Source: a virus (Duplodnaviria > Caudoviricetes). From it: a stretch of DNA of 64,000 bases. The position numbers were made by a program, and so were the translations under genes. The stretch is from the IMG/VR virus record IMGVR_UViG_3300025413_001239; one strand, 5' to 3'. This document shows positions 37,935 through 51,783 of the stretch, piece by piece; position 1 is the stretch's first letter, and the number at the start of each line of letters is the position of its first letter. A model generated the notes under the pieces. The model did no database searches, was not told where the DNA came from, and worked only from the letters and a program-made list of their open reading frames with translations.

Positions 37935-38005
37935 GGTTCTATAGCTCAACGGCAGAGCTGGACTCTCTAAAAGTCTTGATGTTGGTTCGATTCCGACTAG
38001 AATCA
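37935..38005 (+). tRNA. amber-suppressor tRNA (anticodon CTA)
   Basis: ggttcta/tagaatc acceptor; agct D-stem; ggact-ctCTAaa-agtct; gttgg-TTCGATT-ccgac; own TATATTTGC promoter. Confidence 0.85.
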
Positions 38006-38053
38006 CACTTTACATTTTTTAACAATTATTGTATATTTATAAAAAAAAGAAAT

Positions 38054-39382: not shown

Positions 39383-39471
39383 ATTAAAGGGAGAAGAAAT
39401 TCTCCTTTTTTATTTGGTAGTGTTAAGTAAATACCATATATTTGCATTTTATTAAACATAAAATTATACGC

Positions 39472-41442
39472 ATGAAAAATTTACTTACATTGATTTGCTT
39501 ATTAGTAACATTTCAATTAATCGCACAAGACACAATTAAGTCAAAGACTCTAGAACCAATACAAATTACTTGTGTTAGGGCTGATAAGAAAATCCCAGTA
39601 ACACAAAAAACGCTCTCCGATTCGGCTATTCAAGCGAATTATCAGGGTCAAGAAATACCTATGTTGTTAGGTTCTCAAACATCAATTTACACGAATTGTG
39701 ATGGTGGTCATAACGCTGGTTATAGTTACTTTAGCATCAGGGGTATTGACCAAACAAGAATAAACATAACTCTTAATGGTGTTCCATTGAATGAAGGTGA
39801 AGACATGGCTTGTTATACGTCTAATTATCCAAGTTTTACCAGCGCAATTCAATCTATGCAAATTCAACGTGGTGTGGGTACATCATCTAACGGCGCATCA
39901 TCCTTCGGTGGCTCATTGAACTTTCAAAGCAAGGATGGCCTTATTAAGGGTACTGATATTCAAATAGGTGGTGGTTCATTTAATACATCAAGATTTGACA
40001 TATCCACATCCACAGGTTTATCCAAACACAAATTAGCCTTATTCGCTAATATTGGTGGTATACAAACTGATGGCTTTAGAGATAATTCAGGTTGTAAGGG
40101 TGGTTCCGCTTTTGTGAGTCTTGGTTACTTCGGGAAGTCTAGTATTACAAAACTTAACCTATTAACAGGAATATCACAAAACAAACAAGCTTGGATGGGT
40201 TCAAGTGATTCAGCATTAGCAGCTAATTATCGTGATAACCCAAGAGGTGGTGATAATATGGATAATTTCAATCAAACGAATGTTCAATTGCAGAACATAA
40301 CAATGTTTAATACACGGTTTAAATTAACCAGCACTGCGTTTTATAATTACTTAGATGGTCACTATAATGTGTTTAACTTAAAGGATATACCAGTTAATAA
40401 TTATTTTGCATACGAAAGCCAGTATTCACGATGGATTGGTGCGGTAACTCAATTAGATTATAACTATGGTGATTTTAAGGTTACTTCAAGCCTTTCAGCC
40501 AGTACTTATACGAGGTTCCATAATGGTTATGAGATTTACGATACAACACTTACTGAATATCCCTATACTAATAGTGGTAAAAAGAATGATGCAAATGCAT
40601 TCATAAAGTTTAGTTATGACACTAAAAGAGTCTTGTATTATATCGACTTACAAGAAAGATTTGTTGATTATAAGTACTCTGGTGATACAAGTGTTTATCA
40701 AAGCTGGAAGTTCTTTAACCCAAAGGCTGGTGTTAAGTTCTTCATAAACAAGAGTTTGGATGTGTATTGGAGCGTAGGTTTATCTCATAGAGAACCAACA
40801 CACTCAATAATGCTTAATGGTTGGTTGTACTTAAACTCTTATAATCCGATTACAATAGTTAAGCCTGAGGAAGTAATTGATAATGAAATAGGTGTAAATT
40901 ACACGTCAAGTAAACTAAAATTACAAGCTAATGTTTATGTAATGAAATTTACGAATGAAATGATAGCTGCTGGGCCGATGGGTAATAACAGTCTTCCTAT
41001 TATGATGAATGTTCCTAATAGTCTAAGATATGGCTTCGAATTTGATTGTACTTATAAAGTAAATAAGTCGTTTACTTATGATATTAATTCAACATTATCT
41101 AATGGTCAGTTTAAAGTTGATAGCGGTACGTATAGCTACTTATTTAATCCAAATTTTATGTTTAAGCATTCGATTAACTATACACATAATAAGTTATTTG
41201 TAAGCCTTAATCAAGCATATATTTCAAGAGTTTACATTGATAAGGCTAATCAATTTACTTTGCCAATATCATCTACAATCGGTTTGAATCTTGGATATAC
41301 CTTTGGTCGTTATCAAGTATCAATTCAGGGTAACAATTTAACAGGTGAGAAGACTTATAGCAATGGTTCAGTTACTGGTGTTAGGTATAGAATACCTAAC
41401 GCTTTACAAAATTACTTCATAACCCTTAAAATACACTTATGA
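39472..41442 (+). CDS. TonB-dependent receptor
   Basis: signal peptide, plug motifs (SIRG, RINITLNGVPLN, IQRGVGTSSNG..SFGGSLN), beta-barrel, C-terminal YFITLKIHL. Confidence 0.9.
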   Translation: MKNLLTLICLLVTFQLIAQDTIKSKTLEPIQITCVRADKKIPVTQKTLSDSAIQANYQGQEIPMLLGSQTSIYTNCDGGHNAGYSYFSIRGIDQTRINITLNGVPLNEGEDMACYTSNYPSFTSAIQSMQIQRGVGTSSNGASSFGGSLNFQSKDGLIKGTDIQIGGGSFNTSRFDISTSTGLSKHKLALFANIGGIQTDGFRDNSGCKGGSAFVSLGYFGKSSITKLNLLTGISQNKQAWMGSSDSALAANYRDNPRGGDNMDNFNQTNVQLQNITMFNTRFKLTSTAFYNYLDGHYNVFNLKDIPVNNYFAYESQYSRWIGAVTQLDYNYGDFKVTSSLSASTYTRFHNGYEIYDTTLTEYPYTNSGKKNDANAFIKFSYDTKRVLYYIDLQERFVDYKYSGDTSVYQSWKFFNPKAGVKFFINKSLDVYWSVGLSHREPTHSIMLNGWLYLNSYNPITIVKPEEVIDNEIGVNYTSSKLKLQANVYVMKFTNEMIAAGPMGNNSLPIMMNVPNSLRYGFEFDCTYKVNKSFTYDINSTLSNGQFKVDSGTYSYLFNPNFMFKHSINYTHNKLFVSLNQAYISRVYIDKANQFTLPISSTIGLNLGYTFGRYQVSIQGNNLTGEKTYSNGSVTGVRYRIPNALQNYFITLKIHL

Positions 41443-41981
41443 TAGAGTTTATTGGTGCTTTATTCACGCTTTTATCAGCATATTATACTGTAAAAGAAAA
41501 GGTCATTTGTTGGCCGTTAGCGATAGCATCAACGATTATCTACATATATTTACTATATATTGAGAAATTGTATGGTCAGGTATTTGTCGATATATTAACG
41601 TTATTTCAATGCGCTTACGGTTGGTATTATTGGGATAAAACTGATAATAAGCAGCCTGAAAGACTTAAACCCATTAAGTTTGTTAGAGATATATTTCTTT
41701 TAGTTCTAATATCTAGTATTACAATATACTACATAAGAACATATACTAATAATCCACAACCAGTATCGGATATTACGTCAACATACTTAGCACTTTTAGC
41801 TAATTGGTATTTAGCTAAGAAGTTTATTGATGGGTTTTATGTTTGGGTTATAGCCGATATAATACTAGCGTATATGTTTTATTATCAACATATGTATTGG
41901 TCAATGGGTTTATTTATTATTTTAATAGGGTTCGCCCTTCAAGGTCAATTCGCATGGCAAAAGAGTTTAAAAACGGACTAG
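41439..41981 (+). CDS. pnuC: PnuC-family nicotinamide riboside transporter
   Basis: multi-TM; LYGQ...YGWYYW, ANWYLAKK, WVIAD. Confidence 0.85.
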   Translation: MIEFIGALFTLLSAYYTVKEKVICWPLAIASTIIYIYLLYIEKLYGQVFVDILTLFQCAYGWYYWDKTDNKQPERLKPIKFVRDIFLLVLISSITIYYIRTYTNNPQPVSDITSTYLALLANWYLAKKFIDGFYVWVIADIILAYMFYYQHMYWSMGLFIILIGFALQGQFAWQKSLKTD

Positions 41982-42955
41982 TACTTGGGAAATGTTTTCC
42001 ATTTCACTTAGGACATAAATATCTTATTGATTCAGCAATTAAGCAATGTGATACGGTTCACGTTATGGTTTGTTCACTTAAACGTGAAAATATAGCTGGT
42101 GAATTACGTTATGAATGGGTTAAAGAAACATATATGAATAACCCTAGTGTGAATGTTATTCATTGTGATGATGAAAATCCTCAACATCCACCAGAATGTG
42201 CTAGTGTTGATGAATTTTATAATAAGTATTGGGTACCGACTGTATACAAGCATGTTAAGGAACTGGATGTTGTATTTACTTCTGAGGATTACGGTGATGA
42301 ATTTGCCAGTTACTTAGGTGTTAAGCATGTGCTTGTTGATAAAGCTAGAACAGCTTATCCTGTATCTGGAACTTCGGTTAGAGAGAATCCTTATGCAAAT
42401 TGGGATTTAATACCTGATAATGTTAAAAAATACTTTATTAAAAAGATTGTTATTTTAGGTCCTGAATCTGTTGGTAAATCAACGATGGTTAAAAAGTTGG
42501 CTGAGCATTTGGGTTGTAAGTATATCGATGAGTTCGGTAGGACTTATACTGAATTAACTGGAACTGATAATCTTCAAATATTTGATTTTGAAGCGATAGC
42601 TCATTGGCATAATCATCATATTGAAAAGGCTGAAATTGATAAGTACTTAATAATTGATACAGAAGCGATTACAACTAAGATATTTGCTGAAATGTACTTA
42701 GGTAAACGTGAAAGTGAATCTAAATTCATAGATGAAATCATAAGTGAGCAACATTTCGATTTATACTTAGTGCTAAACGTTGATGTTCCTTGGGTTGATG
42801 ATGGTACAAGAGACTTTCCAGAGGGTCGTGAAGAGCATCTAAACACTATTATCTCTAATTTAGAGGAAAGAGGTTTAGAATACAAGCTTATTAGCGGTGA
42901 TAATTACGATGAAAGATTTGAAAAAGCCTTAGAAGAAGTTAAAAAGTTGGGATGA
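41954..42955 (+). CDS. nadR: NadR-like NMN adenylyltransferase / ribosylnicotinamide kinase
   Basis: GKCFPFHLGH HxGH motif; GPESVGKST Walker A; DVPWVDDGTR. Confidence 0.9.
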   Translation: MAKEFKNGLVLGKCFPFHLGHKYLIDSAIKQCDTVHVMVCSLKRENIAGELRYEWVKETYMNNPSVNVIHCDDENPQHPPECASVDEFYNKYWVPTVYKHVKELDVVFTSEDYGDEFASYLGVKHVLVDKARTAYPVSGTSVRENPYANWDLIPDNVKKYFIKKIVILGPESVGKSTMVKKLAEHLGCKYIDEFGRTYTELTGTDNLQIFDFEAIAHWHNHHIEKAEIDKYLIIDTEAITTKIFAEMYLGKRESESKFIDEIISEQHFDLYLVLNVDVPWVDDGTRDFPEGREEHLNTIISNLEERGLEYKLISGDNYDERFEKALEEVKKLG

Positions 42956-42958
42956 CAT

Positions 42959-44194
42959 TTAAATAACAATTAAATCGTTATTTATTTGATTACGGACATT
43001 ATTGTTCATAATCACACTAGTGTAATCCAGTGGCTTTGTCATTGAAGCAAGGTGATTGTCGTAATATCTTTTCATTATGTTGATAGCTGAGTTTAAATCT
43101 CTATCTATTTCGACATTATCACTTAGTTTAACAGTTCTATCCTTTAACTCAACTTTATCTTTAAATAGCTTACCAGTAAGACTATTCAATTGAGTGGTGT
43201 ATTTTTCATCAATCTTAATTAAATCACATTGTTTATTTTGTGACTTATACTTAAGAAATTCTAAGAACATATTAATATTAGATTCATTAAATGATTTTCT
43301 AATACCCTTTTTATTCTTATTTACTCCTTCTGTTGACATAAGGGTTTTTACTGTTAAATCGCCAACTACAATTGTTTTGTAGTTCATATTCACTAATTTT
43401 TTACTCTGAATATGTAGAGTTTGTTTAATTTGACTATTCTTCTTATTATATAGTTTTCTTTTAACTTTATTTAATTTATTAAAGGATTTACTATTCTTTT
43501 GTTTTTTGCTTAACTTAGACTTAATCTTATTAATCTGTTTACCGAAGTACTGATTAATCCTCTTTGATTTATTTTTAAGAATAACAACGGTACCATTGTT
43601 ATCCACACCAGTACCTAAATTCTTTAGACCTAAATCAATAGCGAGTACTCTTGATTTAATTATTAAATCATCTGAGTAGTTTATTTTATCATCGACAACA
43701 ATATCACAAAGCCACTTATTATTAATAAATTTGACTCTAATTTCTTTAATATTTAATTCAGATAAGTTTGTTAAATGACTTGAATATTTAAAATTAATTT
43801 TATTTATTGAAATTATACTATTTTCTTTGAATATCCAACCATTTAGGTTAAAAACTAATGTATGATACTTTCCGAGTTCTTTTGTCTTTGGTGGTCTAGC
43901 TGTATTATCTTTTTTAATAAGTGTGAAGAAAGATTGGTATGATTGAAATATTTCAGCTGCCACAACTTGTGCTGCTTTTGCATTAAATTGTTTCCAAGAT
44001 TCCTTGGTTGAATATTTCAATGGTGGAATGAGGTTAATTAAATCAAACTTTGAGTATACCTTTTTAGTTGATTCATAGTGTTTTTGCTGAATATCAATAA
44101 GAGTGTTCCAAATATCCATACGAATATCAGACAACTGTTTTAGTTGAGATACCTGTTCTGTTGTTGGGTGTAACCTTATTGAGTATGTTTTCAT
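42959..44194 (-). mobile_element. tnpB: IS200/IS605-type TnpB RNA-guided nuclease without TnpA, rearranged-RuvC type
   Basis: KTYSIRLHPT; AIDLG; VVGDL; IDEKYTTQ; DRDLNSAINI. Confidence 0.85.
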
Positions 44195-48855: not shown

Positions 48856-49206
48856 ATGGCAAAATATCTTGTAATTTTTAGTGATAATCACGGTGAAGAA
48901 TTTGATGTTAATGGCTTTAGACTTATGACTGAAAAAGAAGCTGATAAGTTTGAGGATTTAGCGAATAACATTAATTTTGAATTTCATTATTACGCAAACT
49001 CAGAGTCTTTATCTTATTCAAATGGTGAAGACTTCTTATCCAGAATTGAATTTAAGCAAGTATCTAACGAAGAGTACGAAAAACTTGATAAGTTATTTGG
49101 TGGTCAATTTGGAATCTTTATTGGTGAAGAGTACTTAAATATGGTTCTTAAAGGTGAATCAGATGATAACGATGAAGAAAACGATGATTATAATGACAAT
49201 TGGTGA
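48856..49206 (+). CDS. hypothetical protein
   Basis: ORF after a TATTTAT box. Confidence 0.65.
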   Translation: MAKYLVIFSDNHGEEFDVNGFRLMTEKEADKFEDLANNINFEFHYYANSESLSYSNGEDFLSRIEFKQVSNEEYEKLDKLFGGQFGIFIGEEYLNMVLKGESDDNDEENDDYNDNW

Positions 49207-49275
49207 AAAACTTTAAAAAAGATTTGTCTAATTCAAAATAACCACGTATATTTGCACTTCAAATAGCTAATAAAG

Positions 49276-50568
49276 ATGAAGTGTATTAAAACAAGGAAAA
49301 TTCAGTTGTTGCCATTAGGTGATTTTAATGAAACCTACAAATACGTTAATAATTTAAGTTCAGGCTTAGCGTCACTCGGTAATGAAATGATAAGGAGACA
49401 TGTTTTATCATTTTATGAAATGGACGTACTAAAAGATTCAACTCCAGATGCTAAAACTAGAACTAATCTAATGAAGGAAAAATACGGAATGTCACTCCAA
49501 AATATGGGTTATGATGTTTCAAAAAAGTATTCAGCCACAATTCCTTCGAATATTCGCACAACATTTAATCAAAAGGTCTTTAAAAAAATAAAAGACAGTT
49601 ATTTTGGTATTTCAATAAATAAAGAATCTATACCATCATTCAGAAAAGACTCAATGGCAATTCCATTTAGTTATGATAATAATATCAGTTTGAACGAATT
49701 TGGGGTGTATGATTTTAAATTCTTTAATAATGTCAATTTTAAATTAAACTTTGGACGTGATAGGTCTAATAATAAAGTTATCATTGACAGAATTTTATCT
49801 AATGAATATAAGCCATTATCTTCACATATAAAAATTGATAAGAAAAAAATATTCTTAGATTTAACATATTCTTTTGACTCAGATGAAAATGTTAACATAT
49901 CTAAAGATAAAATTGTTGGTGTTGATTTAGGTATAAATAGACCTATGACAATTGCTAGGGAAGATGGTACTTATGCAAAACAAATAGAAATCGGTGGTAA
50001 GATTCAATACTCTAGATTATCAATTCAAAAACAAAGAAGAAGCTTACAAAGTGCTTTAAGGCATTCATCTGGTGGTCATGGTACTGGTAAAAAAATAGCT
50101 AAATTAAAATCATTAAAAGATTATGAACATAATTTCATGAAAACCACTAATGATACACTAAGTCGTGAATTAATAAAATATTGCGTTAATGAAGGTGTTG
50201 GTGTAATTAAATTAGAAAATCTAACTGGTATAACAGAAAATGCTAATAATTTTCTTAAGTCTTGGTCTTATTATCAATTACAACAAATGATTGAGTATAA
50301 AGCTGCTGAATTTGGAATTACAGTATTATATGTTAATCCTAGATATACCTCTCAAACTTGTCCAACTTGTGGCAATATTGATAAAACTCAAAGAGATTCA
50401 AAGGATAAAACAAAATTTGCTTGTTCAAATGAAATTTGTTCTGATATTAATATAAATAAAGATGCTGATATTATTGGTGCCTTTAATATCTCAAAAAGAG
50501 ATGGTGTTATCGCTTCTAAAAAAATATTACAAGAAAAAAGTGATAAAAAGTTGTTAGTTTCAGAATAA
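49276..50568 (+). CDS. cas12f: type V-F Cas12f-like RNA-guided nuclease (430 aa)
   Basis: RuvC D217 (GVDLG), E314 (KLENL), D398 (DADI); CPTC zinc finger; GGHG and W-YYQLQQMIEYKA motifs resemble AsCas12f1; abuts tracr and array. Confidence 0.85.
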   Translation: MKCIKTRKIQLLPLGDFNETYKYVNNLSSGLASLGNEMIRRHVLSFYEMDVLKDSTPDAKTRTNLMKEKYGMSLQNMGYDVSKKYSATIPSNIRTTFNQKVFKKIKDSYFGISINKESIPSFRKDSMAIPFSYDNNISLNEFGVYDFKFFNNVNFKLNFGRDRSNNKVIIDRILSNEYKPLSSHIKIDKKKIFLDLTYSFDSDENVNISKDKIVGVDLGINRPMTIAREDGTYAKQIEIGGKIQYSRLSIQKQRRSLQSALRHSSGGHGTGKKIAKLKSLKDYEHNFMKTTNDTLSRELIKYCVNEGVGVIKLENLTGITENANNFLKSWSYYQLQQMIEYKAAEFGITVLYVNPRYTSQTCPTCGNIDKTQRDSKDKTKFACSNEICSDININKDADIIGAFNISKRDGVIASKKILQEKSDKKLLVSE

Positions 50569-50589
50569 GTTCGTATATTTGCATAAATA

Positions 50590-50750
50590 AAAAAAGTTCT
50601 TTTACATATTGAGCCTAACGGCTGGGCTGGTTGTTCAGCCTTAAGGTGAATCCACGAATAAACGTGGTGATACTCTAGAGTATTGGAGGAAACTCACTCA
50701 CCAAATACCTTTAAATATAGGGTTTATAATGTCGTTAATGGTATAAACAA
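50590..50750 (+). ncRNA. putative tracrRNA (boundaries approximate)
   Basis: own promoter at about 50572-50583; anti-repeat 50705-50733 complementary to the repeat; GTTGTT near 50630 complementary to the repeat 3' AACAAC. Confidence 0.7.
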
Positions 50751-50769
50751 TTAAGAAATGCGCTATTCA

Positions 50770-51398
50770 GGTGTTAATGACCCTAATTTGAAAGGTATAA
50801 ACAACTAACGCTTGCAATGCAGTTCAGGTAGTGTTGGTGTTAATGACCCTAATTTGAAAGGTATAAACAACAGTATTATATAATTGTTGTTGCATTTGAT
50901 GGTGTTAATGACCCTAATTTGAAAGGTATAAACAACAGAGGTGTTCTAGCTTGACTTCACTAATATGGTGTTAATGACCCTAATTTGAAAGGTATAAACA
51001 ACGGACTGGCATCGTTAATGGTTGCTGGTCACGGTGTTAATGACCCTAATTTGAAAGGTATAAACAACAAAACTTTAATAGACCACTCTTAGGGTCTAGG
51101 TGTTAATAACCCTAATTTGAAAGGTATAAACAACCATAATATTATTTTTAATTCACCGCAATGTGGTGTTAATGACCCTAATTTGAAAGGTATAAACAAC
51201 GGGTTGAGTTAACTGGTCTGTTATTGTCATGGTGTTAATGACCCTAATTTGAAAGGTATAAACAACGAAACTGAACGTTTACTAAAAGACAAAGAAGGTG
51301 TTAATGACCCTAATTTGAAAGGTATAAACAACGAGACTGAACATTTACTAAAAGACAAGGAAGGTGTTAATGACCCTAATTTGAAAGGTATAAACAAC
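50770..51398 (+). CRISPR. CRISPR array: 10 x 36-bp repeat GGTGTTAATGACCCTAATTTGAAAGGTATAAACAAC, 9 spacers (8 x 30 nt, 1 x 29 nt)
   Basis: repeats start at 50770, 50836, 50901, 50967, 51033, 51099 (one G>A), 51165, 51231, 51297, 51363. Confidence 0.98.
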
Positions 51399-51443
51399 TT
51401 CGTCACTCAGGTACGTATTTAATTTTTTTTAAAGTTTTTAGTG

Positions 51444-51531
51444 AAAAAACTTGACAATTCAAAATAAGTTTGTATATTTGCATTGTAATTAAAAAATTTT
51501 ACACTTTTTAAAAAAGTGACATATTTATAAC
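51444..51531 (+). promoter_or_regulatory. promoter of tRNA cluster 2 (TATATTTGC and TATTTATA boxes)
   Basis: 21-nt identity with 4093-4113. Confidence 0.7.
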
Positions 51532-51559
51532 AAAAGGGAAACCCATAAACAAAAAGATA

Positions 51560-51643
51560 ATGATAAACGTTAACAACATATTTAATTTTAATTTTGAAGC
51601 AGCTGAGGCAGATTTTAGCCATCAGAGGGTTGAGGTATTGTAG
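51560..51643 (+). CDS. putative leader peptide MINVNNIFNFNFEAAEADFSHQRVEVL* (TAG) of tRNA cluster 2
   Basis: 27-codon ORF between promoter and terminator. Confidence 0.6.
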   Translation: MINVNNIFNFNFEAAEADFSHQRVEVL

Positions 51644-51672
51644 TTAACGAATCGAAAGAAACATATTAAACG

Positions 51673-51703
51673 AAAGCCCTTAACCAAAAGTTAAGGGTTT
51701 TTT
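51673..51703 (+). terminator. attenuator-type terminator ahead of tRNA cluster 2
   Basis: aaagcccttaac-caaaa-gttaagggtttt plus T-tract, about 10 nt before tRNA-Asp. Confidence 0.75.
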
Positions 51704-51712
51704 ATTTATATT

Positions 51713-51783
51713 CGAGGTGTAGTTTAGTGGTAAAATGCCGCACTGTCTATGCGGTGTCACGATTTCGATTATCGTCATCTCGG
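51713..51783 (+). tRNA. tRNA-Asp(GTC)
   Basis: cgaggtg/catctcg acceptor; ccgca-ctGTCta-tgcgg. Confidence 0.85.

Follow-up and report, generated by a model that had tools for sequence, protein, structure and literature searches.

A probable adaptation-less type V-F1 interference module in a giant phage of Bacteroidota

Introduction

How might a giant phage direct DNA interference with one compact nuclease and no adaptation genes beside it? The question is raised by a locus in IMG/VR virus record IMGVR_UViG_3300025413_001239 (Duplodnaviria; Caudoviricetes), of which we analysed a stretch of 64,000 nucleotides (the window, to which all unprefixed coordinates refer). The locus carries a gene for a Cas12f nuclease, a predicted trans-activating RNA (tracrRNA, or helper RNA) and a CRISPR array. 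We consider it likely that these elements form a self-contained, adaptation-less interference module of type V-F1 (effector Cas12f1, formerly V-U3) in a giant phage of Bacteroidota. This reading draws directly on the family membership of the protein, its intact catalytic and zinc-binding residues, purifying selection on the gene, covariation within the RNA, complementarity between RNA and repeat, and the lack of adaptation genes nearby.

In the mechanism that we propose, one phage promoter would drive cas12f, and a second, with its -33 box in the last codons of that gene, would drive a helper RNA of about 140-170 nt and then the array. The helper RNA would adopt a conserved scaffold fold of several stems; the anti-repeat on its 3' side would pair with nucleotides 1-30 of the repeat and the GTTGTT loop with AACAAC at the 3' end of the repeat, giving two duplexes of the AsCas12f type, and the spacer 3' of each repeat would serve as guide. 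The protein, probably a homodimer as in solved relatives, would use its RuvC domain to cut double-stranded DNA flanked by a protospacer-adjacent motif (PAM). Transcription, processing, dimer formation, the PAM and cleavage are expected here by analogy with those relatives, and the targets would be competing phages or other mobile DNA sharing the host.

An earlier, sequence-only reading of the window had proposed a 430-residue Cas12f nuclease with an intact D217/E314/D398 triad and zinc finger, a dedicated promoter, a second promoter reaching into the last codons, a tracrRNA, a nine-spacer array of 36-bp repeats and no cas1, cas2 or cas4 in 64 kb. It took the carrier for a Bacteroidetes phage and the system for new and likely active. 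The anatomy and the origin hold up in the analyses below, and the intact triad and zinc finger, purifying selection, covarying RNA and anti-repeat complementarity make activity probable; the claim of newness is taken up with the phage context.

A Cas12f1-branch nuclease with an intact active site

The cas12f gene (49276..50568, + strand) encodes an RNA-guided nuclease of 430 residues. Its start codon, ATG at 49276, is backed by an N-terminal KTRKIQLLP that is kept in relatives; a TTG start, the choice of one gene caller, is disfavoured by this conserved N-terminus. Against PADLOC, the protein matched the Cas12f profile PDLC01699 with residues 2-415 aligned to profile positions 2-398 of 399 (E 1.6e-89), and also the Cas12u3 model over its full length (E 6.7e-89). 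Pfam returned Cas12f1-like_TNB (E 6e-19) together with OrfB_IS605, and NCBIfam returned guided_TnpB (172 bits, cut-off 100), a generic subfamily model that also takes in Cas12f-like proteins. Identity with Cas12f2 (NCBIfam NF049972) is ruled out by a score of 85.9 bits against a curated cut-off of 450, the protein falling in the Cas12f1/V-U3 branch.

The protein has the features that define the family: small size (about 400-700 residues in Cas12f generally), a single split RuvC domain with a D-E-D triad, and a zinc-finger (TNB) insert. The catalytic residues D217, E314 and D398 lie in the motifs VGVDLGIN, IKLENL and KDADIIGAFNI, and the zinc finger is formed by C362, C365, C383 and C388. All seven residues are invariant in an alignment of the window protein with 25 relatives of 38-83% identity. 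Between cas12f and the gene of the 83%-identical relative, the ratio of nonsynonymous to synonymous divergence (dN/dS) is 0.155 at dS 0.72. On this evidence from sequence, the protein is a Cas12f1-branch effector with an intact active site, under purifying selection.

Comparison with solved structures points the same way. By phmmer against the PDB, the best match was Al3Cas12f (9NZO/9NZR; E 1e-51, residues 75-390), followed by AsCas12f (about 5e-42), the nuclease-dead dCas12f (9N9C; 1.6e-25) and Un1Cas12f1 (3e-18). SpCas12f1, CnCas12f1, OsCas12f and RhCas12f were matched as well, the Cas12f chains ranging from 1e-51 to 1e-17, whereas ISDra2 TnpB reached 2e-3 only. An AlphaFold2 model of the protein (predicted local distance difference test score 83.2) shows the fold of Cas12f proteins, which comprises WED, REC, RuvC and TNB domains. 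Foldseek comparison of whole chains gave template-modelling (TM) scores of 0.78/0.81 to AsCas12f, 0.75/0.72 to Al3Cas12f and 0.62/0.75 to dCas12f, against 0.52-0.57 to TnpB structures. The 'Cas12 hacker'/Cas12p-TrxA, considered as the nearest phage relative, was set aside at a TM score of only 0.54.

Close to it in size is AsCas12f1 of Acidibacillus sulfuroxidans (422 residues against 430 here; type V-F1; PDB 8J12, 7WJU, 8DZJ). The two share a full-length fold, the RuvC motifs GxDLG, xxxExL and ADxxxAxxNI, and a CxxC...C zinc finger. They differ in sequence, with about 28% identity, and in setting, the window protein being phage-borne and AT-rich. The local alignment between them stops short of RuvC-III, where the window protein has an 8-residue insertion; beyond it, DADIIGAFNI still aligns with AsCas12f NADYNAARNI. 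Al3Cas12f, also called Cas12f-MG119 and derived from Alistipes, is the best sequence match in the PDB and shares a Bacteroidota origin. However, it comprises 506 residues and has extensions of the REC helices said to be unique to its clade, a region in which the window protein is shorter by about 75 residues. Members of the Al3Cas12f family use guide RNAs of 129-156 nt, recognise T-rich PAMs and act as obligate dimers (PMC13186708); the window scaffold, at about 140 nt, fits this guide size.

A conserved helper RNA complementary to the repeat

The 201-nt gap between the cas12f stop codon and the first repeat contains a structured RNA of about 140-170 nt, the predicted tracrRNA or scaffold RNA (50584..50751, +). 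The gap aligns with the matching regions of four relatives, among which compensatory changes are plain, and a covariance model built from these five sequences scores the window RNA at 144 bits. Searched against 87 sources, the model gave 82 matches, each beside or near the gene and on its strand. Across 66 distinct rows, standard pairs fill 97.7% of cells, compared with 32-43% when the partners are slid, and double changes occur at 14 of 17 pairs. The covariation score of 0.543 compares with at most 0.105 for slid partners, and none of 500 shuffles scored as high. Fitting the alignment to the model works in favour of the structure, yet the gap to the controls is very wide, and RNAalifold recovered the same helices independently.

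All elements of the RNA lie on the + strand. A 5' hairpin (50611-50623) is followed by a second hairpin with the stem GGGCTG (50624-50629)/CAGCC (50636-50640) and the loop GTTGTT (50630-50635). A long-range stem, GGTGA (50645-50649)/TCACC (50698-50702), encloses a hairpin CCACG/CGTGG (50652-50667), and the helices of the RNA include two less conserved hairpins. The core of the anti-repeat, ACCTTTAAATATAGGGT, occupies 50707-50723 (+).

The predicted duplex between 50704-50734 and nucleotides 1-30 of the repeat has an energy of -21.1 kcal/mol. For the 41-nt anti-repeat region, shuffled repeats averaged -8.7 ± 2.6 kcal/mol and none of 1000 reached this value; the test is less strong when all 186 nt of the region are offered, the value then being matched by 21 of 500 shuffles and by 8 of 316 segments from elsewhere in the genome. 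Judged by eye, the anti-repeat also covaries with the repeat across clades, as ACCTTT/AAAGGT, ACCTTCA/TGAAGTGT and ATACTAT/ATAGTAT. The loop GTTGTT is in turn complementary to AACAAC, the final six bases of the repeat. Across the family, this pairing appears as GTTGTA:TACAAC (40 times), GTTGTT:AACAAC (3 times) and GTTGTG:CACAAC (once), with one exception, a modest but real signal in the sequences for a pseudoknot. In the solved structures of AsCas12f, a dual guide with a long tracrRNA forms two repeat:anti-repeat duplexes. The candidate pseudoknot would correspond to the second of these, so that loop and anti-repeat together give a computed double pairing like that of AsCas12f1. By computation, then, the locus has a tracrRNA with an anti-repeat and guides placed 3' of the repeat.

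The array and its promoters

The array (50770..51398, +) comprises ten copies of the 36-nt repeat GGTGTTAATGACCCTAATTTGAAAGGTATAAACAAC and nine spacers of 29-30 nt. Nine of the ten repeats are identical, and the remaining one has a single mismatch. As in type V-F systems, the array adjoins cas12f on the same strand; same-strand arrays with the same 3' half of the repeat lie beside 31 of 34 close metagenomic relatives. A type V array gives one guide per repeat, and the stretch after repeat 10 (from 51399 onward) may for this reason be a tenth guide. This putative guide (51399..51431, +) ends in a T run ahead of the next promoter motif, at 51472-51482.

Spacers 8 and 9 differ at just 3 of 30 positions and could represent two variants of one target. 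We also considered whether they match two alleles of a coding target that differ synonymously, an idea too weak to rely on with only three differences, two of which lie 24 nt apart and hence always share a codon phase.

Where 2.9 copies of the motif GTATATTTGCA would be expected, the window has 30, of which 28 lie on the + strand. Bacteroidota promoters have the -7 consensus TAnnTTTG, and the motif contains a consensus of this type. Around the locus, it stands at 49246-49256, 50573-50583 and 51472-51482, three promoter copies that form a direct-repeat family; the first two each have a TTTG/TTG box 21 nt upstream. The putative cas12f promoter (49223..49256, +) thus has its -33 TTTG at 49223-49226 and its -7 element TATATTTG inside the first copy, 20 nt before the ATG. 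The second putative promoter (50551..50583, +) has its -33 TTG at 50551-50553, inside the last cas12f codons, and its -7 motif in the second copy; from its position, it would drive the helper RNA and the array. Both match the phage consensus exactly. Elsewhere in the window, sites of the motif include 4121, 5557, 18803, 28717, 37144, 47298, 53412 and 61464, and those that we sampled shortly precede gene starts or tRNA genes.

Guide architectures in the clade

In many relatives, the scaffold runs past the anti-repeat through a short hairpin into GGTATATACAAC, the 3' end of the repeat, and continues with a variable segment of 29-30 nt before the first full repeat. At at least nine distinct loci, this built-in end lies exactly one array period (65-66 nt) ahead of the end of the first full repeat, which makes each of these scaffolds a natural single-guide RNA with an array behind it. 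In other relatives, a simple tracrRNA precedes the array, and the first repeat end lies 73-115 nt past the motif. In a marine clade, 14-nt mini-repeats (ATAGTATATACAAC), separated by short, irregular spacers, follow each of two to four full scaffolds arranged in tandem. The members of this clade (our loci L047-L059, from marine metagenome contigs; for example, L051:1972-3254 and L054:4333-5276) are relatives of 40-41% identity without an array of 36-nt repeats. Their tandem scaffold copies are ~125 nt long, each ending in GGTATATACAAC, the spacers between mini-repeats measure 16-30 nt, and the anti-repeat is altered to ATACTAT, matching their repeats. In the protein tree, in which the window Cas12f pairs with the 83% relative, the guide forms, labelled crudely by architecture, are mixed among the 48 rows of a single well-supported core clade.

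The window holds a degenerate version of the built-in unit. Its repeat end, GGTATAAACAAT (50740-50751, +), identified by comparison with relatives, ends in T rather than C. Only 18 nt (50752..50769, +; 'spacer 0') separate it from repeat 1, and its distance of 54 nt puts it out of register with the array, where 65-66 nt would fit. Within the window, the 18-mer has no other match. We read this unit, from its sequence, as a vestige, and a dual guide is most likely the working mode here.

Taken as a whole, the clade holds a separate tracrRNA with an array, a tracrRNA joined to a repeat end and provided with a guide of its own, and full scaffolds in tandem with 14-nt mini-repeats. Such forms are the series expected between omega-RNA, dual guides and the chimeric guides of dCas12f, and the clade is in this respect more instructive than the window. 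One relative (L009:6301-7856) carries three consecutive modules, each a helper RNA with a mini-array; the mini-arrays have 7, 3 and 5 repeats. From the same phage in another sample (L011:1944-2330), a block is missing that reaches from the end of array 1 across helper copy 2 into the start of array 2, and arrays in the clade therefore change by recombination between repeats.

Phage context and missing adaptation genes

An identical protein with the same array is found on contigs of 339,484 bp and 50,735 bp from two Joint Genome Institute lake metagenomes. The window has a G+C content of 30.6% and 11 tRNA genes, one with a CTA anticodon (suppressor), and its matches to PHROG families include an endolysin, a DNA transfer protein and homing endonucleases. 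The Bacteroidota-type promoters and the roughly 340-kb phage contig, together with the kinship of the repeat described below, support a giant phage of Bacteroidota as the carrier. The genes around cas12f code for a CCA-adding enzyme and a MORN-repeat protein or are small and unknown; none of these neighbours is a transposase, sigma factor, helix-turn-helix (HTH) or cas gene.

In PADLOC searches with the 95 open reading frames (ORFs) of at least 70 residues in the 64-kb window, Cas1, Cas2 and Cas4 were absent from the matches listed (the best 25 of 47 families), which excludes only matches better than about E 4e-8. Relatives of 42-51% identity occur on eight IMG/VR contigs of 29-311 kb. In five of these contigs, one of them 93% complete, nothing scored above the cut-off for Cas1, and control genomes scored as expected.

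Huge phages that carry type V-F/V-U effectors with conserved catalytic residues and arrays, and no Cas1, Cas2 or Cas4, are described in Al-Shayeb et al. 2020 (PMC7162821), which also reports that huge-phage repeats resemble host repeats. Because such systems were published in 2020, and by that description they resemble ours in the huge phage, the compact effector, the array and the missing adaptation genes, the module is a fresh example within the well-studied Cas12f family and not a new kind of system. The individual ortholog is new, as the sequence-only reading held; newness of the system was overstated, structures of AsCas12f-like proteins of 415-506 residues having been solved as well. The anatomy of the helper RNA and the kinship of the array repeat with Cas13b-type repeats are not described in the available part of that paper. 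The locus adds one more AsCas12f-sized ortholog (430 residues), with a well-defined natural guide RNA and from an AT-rich Bacteroidota phage, which may interest collectors of compact editors with different PAMs and leaves the general picture of Cas12f unchanged. As biology, it is one more case, clean and conserved, of a giant phage with a CRISPR module for interference only.

Spacer targets and alternative explanations

None of the collections searched yielded a protospacer for any spacer, and use against competing phages, as proposed in the sequence-only reading, gained no support. The whole array gave only chance-level matches (E at least 0.7) against 50,697 cultured phage records. In IMG/VR, where the sequence-only reading had suggested looking, neither a degenerate pattern for spacers 8 and 9 nor a codon-wobble pattern for the peptide ETE[R/H]LLKDKE was matched, nor were the first 23 nt of spacer 4. 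All spacers were compared with the window and all comparison loci and found no target there, and the array matched five whole related viral contigs only through repeats and short chance matches. In the reverse direction, about 260 putative spacers of relatives gave a best match to the window of 24 nt with 3 mismatches (E 0.06), and the window had no spacer match among 120 bacterial loci. The missing targets are weak evidence, because even this phage is absent from the public viral collections that were searched.

Besides these empty searches, some further points weigh against the interference reading. The near-identical spacers 8 and 9 could reflect duplication and drift, not two acquisitions. 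The array is identical in both lake samples that hold this phage, with no sign of recent spacer uptake. And NCBIfam's sole Cas12f model, Cas12f2, fell far short of its cut-off, with guided_TnpB the only model passed.

Several of these points would suit a decaying relic, in which the protein may still fold while an array that matches nothing is no longer renewed and brings the phage no benefit. Its unchanged array in two samples, the empty target searches, the degenerate built-in guide (an 18-nt spacer 0, a terminal T for C, 54 nt against 65-66) and the possible drift between spacers 8 and 9 (3 of 30 positions) could all be signs of decay. Against decay, dN/dS is 0.155, the catalytic and zinc residues are all invariant, nine of ten repeats are identical, scaffold pairs are maintained by compensatory changes, and both promoters match the phage consensus exactly. 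Together with the weakness of missing targets as evidence, this makes a relic quite improbable. A system that is real and serves host takeover or gene regulation, with guides against the host chromosome or host mobile elements, is unlikely. In its favour, phage spacers against host transcription and translation genes are reported in Al-Shayeb et al. 2020 (PMC7162821), no phage target emerged from our spacer searches, and the related nuclease-dead dCas12f proteins (PDB 9N9C; E 1.6e-25) are RNA-guided transcription factors in Bacteroidota (PMC12259090). Those dCas12f-sigma-E systems share with our clade a related protein and single chimeric guides, which the built-in units resemble, and the repeat-like guide end AATTTGAAAGGTATATACAAC recurs at Parapedobacter homologs. 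However, dCas12f is truncated, without the C-terminal RuvC part, and paired with rpoE, whereas the window nuclease is complete, with RuvC-III and the zinc finger present and its RuvC triad intact and invariant. It also has a true array and a separate anti-repeat and no adjacent sigma factor or HTH gene, and its spacers matched neither the 120 bacterial loci nor the window.

The similarity to transposon proteins raises one more possibility, that the enzyme is a transposon-type TnpB with an omega-RNA, that the repeats are incidental and that it serves maintenance of an element by homing, not defence or offence. The Pfam OrfB_IS605 and NCBIfam guided_TnpB matches fit this, as do other TnpB-like genes in the phage, one of them at 42962-44194. 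TnpB of ISDra2 (PMC10097598) shares the RuvC/zinc-finger core and has a scaffold RNA 3' of the gene with the guide at its 3' end, much as the scaffold here ends in a built-in guide position. In sequence and fold, however, the protein is far nearer to Cas12f than to TnpB (E 2e-3, TM about 0.52-0.57), and the other TnpB-like gene of the window is just 25% identical to it. Nor is there a transposon context: no tnpA lies among the neighbours, though no search was aimed at element ends, and the locus keeps its synteny in the 83% relative. Unlike the RNA of IS200/IS605 elements, the helper RNA begins past the stop codon under its own promoter, without overlap with the 3' end of the gene. A CRISPR array is present, its repeats match the anti-repeat, and arrays stand beside 31 of 34 relatives. 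We regard a TnpB of this kind as very improbable. The sequence-only reading had treated binding of an omega-RNA instead of the array as grounds for rejecting the system, which sets up a choice that the locus does not impose: an omega-RNA-like built-in unit is indeed present, but it is degenerate, and the anti-repeat fits the array repeats.

Kinship of the repeat with type VI-B arrays

Where an interference-only module such as the one proposed here obtains its spacers is a further question. When 185,579 species genomes were scanned for TTGAAAGGTAWAWACAAC, at least 120 stretches matched, and the multi-copy matches listed all lie in Bacteroidota. Among those listed, one group is made up of regular arrays, with repeats of 36 nt and spacers of 30 nt, from Segatella buccae, Prevotella aurantiaca, Flavobacterium jejuense, Parabacteroides and several metagenome-assembled genomes; their repeats share 24-29 of 36 positions with the window repeat. 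The large ORF next to five of these arrays encodes Cas13b (E 1e-70 to 5e-277). The VI-B-like loci comprise L108 (Segatella buccae), L100, L110, L124 and L171, and also L103 (Flavobacterium jejuense), L119 and L126; inside the 8-kb loci of the last three, no effector gene was found. The last 18 nt of the phage and VI-B repeats fit one pattern with A or T allowed at two positions. The phage anti-repeat is predicted to pair with the VI-B repeats at -13 to -20 kcal/mol, compared with -21 when its own repeat is the partner and -8.7 with shuffled repeats. This kinship and cross-pairing support a Bacteroidota host.

A second group among the matches listed consists of irregularly spaced copies in Parapedobacter and relatives, beside truncated Cas12f homologs (residues 160-351). 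At L109, L128, L137, L153 and other Parapedobacter loci, these chromosomal homologs are surrounded by irregular copies of AATTTGAAAGGTATATACAAC; they are probably of the published dCas12f type.

Type VI-B arrays resemble the phage array in their 36-nt repeats, 30-nt spacers, GTTGT...ACAAC ends and lack of adaptation genes of their own, but differ in that their effector is the RNA-targeting Cas13b, which works without a tracrRNA. Shared adaptation or shared ancestry of the two kinds of array is a hypothesis. In Flavobacterium columnare, type VI-B arrays without adaptation genes of their own gain spacers through the Cas1 of a type II-C system (PMC8092290). It is conceivable, if rather unlikely from the sequences at hand, that the phage array and helper RNA are tuned to the Cas13b-type repeats of the host. 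If they were, host Cas1-Cas2 of type II-C could load new spacers into the phage array, and the phage Cas12f with its tracrRNA could read host VI-B CRISPR RNA precursors and turn them into DNA-cutting guides against rival phages. The kinship with Cas13b repeats offers a concrete, testable idea for the spacer supply of adaptation-less phage arrays.

Other features of the window

The tRNA gene with the CTA anticodon (37935-38006, +; tRNA-Pyl by ARAGORN, 61.5 bits by the Rfam tRNA model) would read TAG stops, and the ORFs of the window appear intact under the standard code. The region 39442-42952 encodes a TonB-dependent-receptor Plug protein, a nicotinamide mononucleotide transporter and a NadR-like protein (Citrate_ly_lig and AAA_28). 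This trio, unusual in a phage, suggests salvage of nicotinamide adenine dinucleotide. Inserted directly behind it is the second TnpB-like gene (42962-44194, - strand; 411 residues), with Pfam matches to OrfB_IS605 and Cas12f1-like_TNB and a weak one to HTH_OrfB. In a pairwise alignment with cas12f, no cysteines face the zinc-finger CPTC and a D faces the RuvC-II E. At 25% identity (E 6e-6), we rejected it as the direct parent of cas12f.

Immediately 5' of cas12f lies a gene (48856-49206, +) for a 116-residue protein with a very acidic tail, DDNDEENDDYNDNW, and no family match. It also adjoins cas12f in the 83% relative (L006:4595-4945), a shared position that may be mere phage synteny. On the other side of the module, the stretch 51451-51712 contains the third promoter motif, a leader of about 190 nt and a strong terminator-like hairpin (51672-51702), after which a tRNA-Asp gene begins at 51713.

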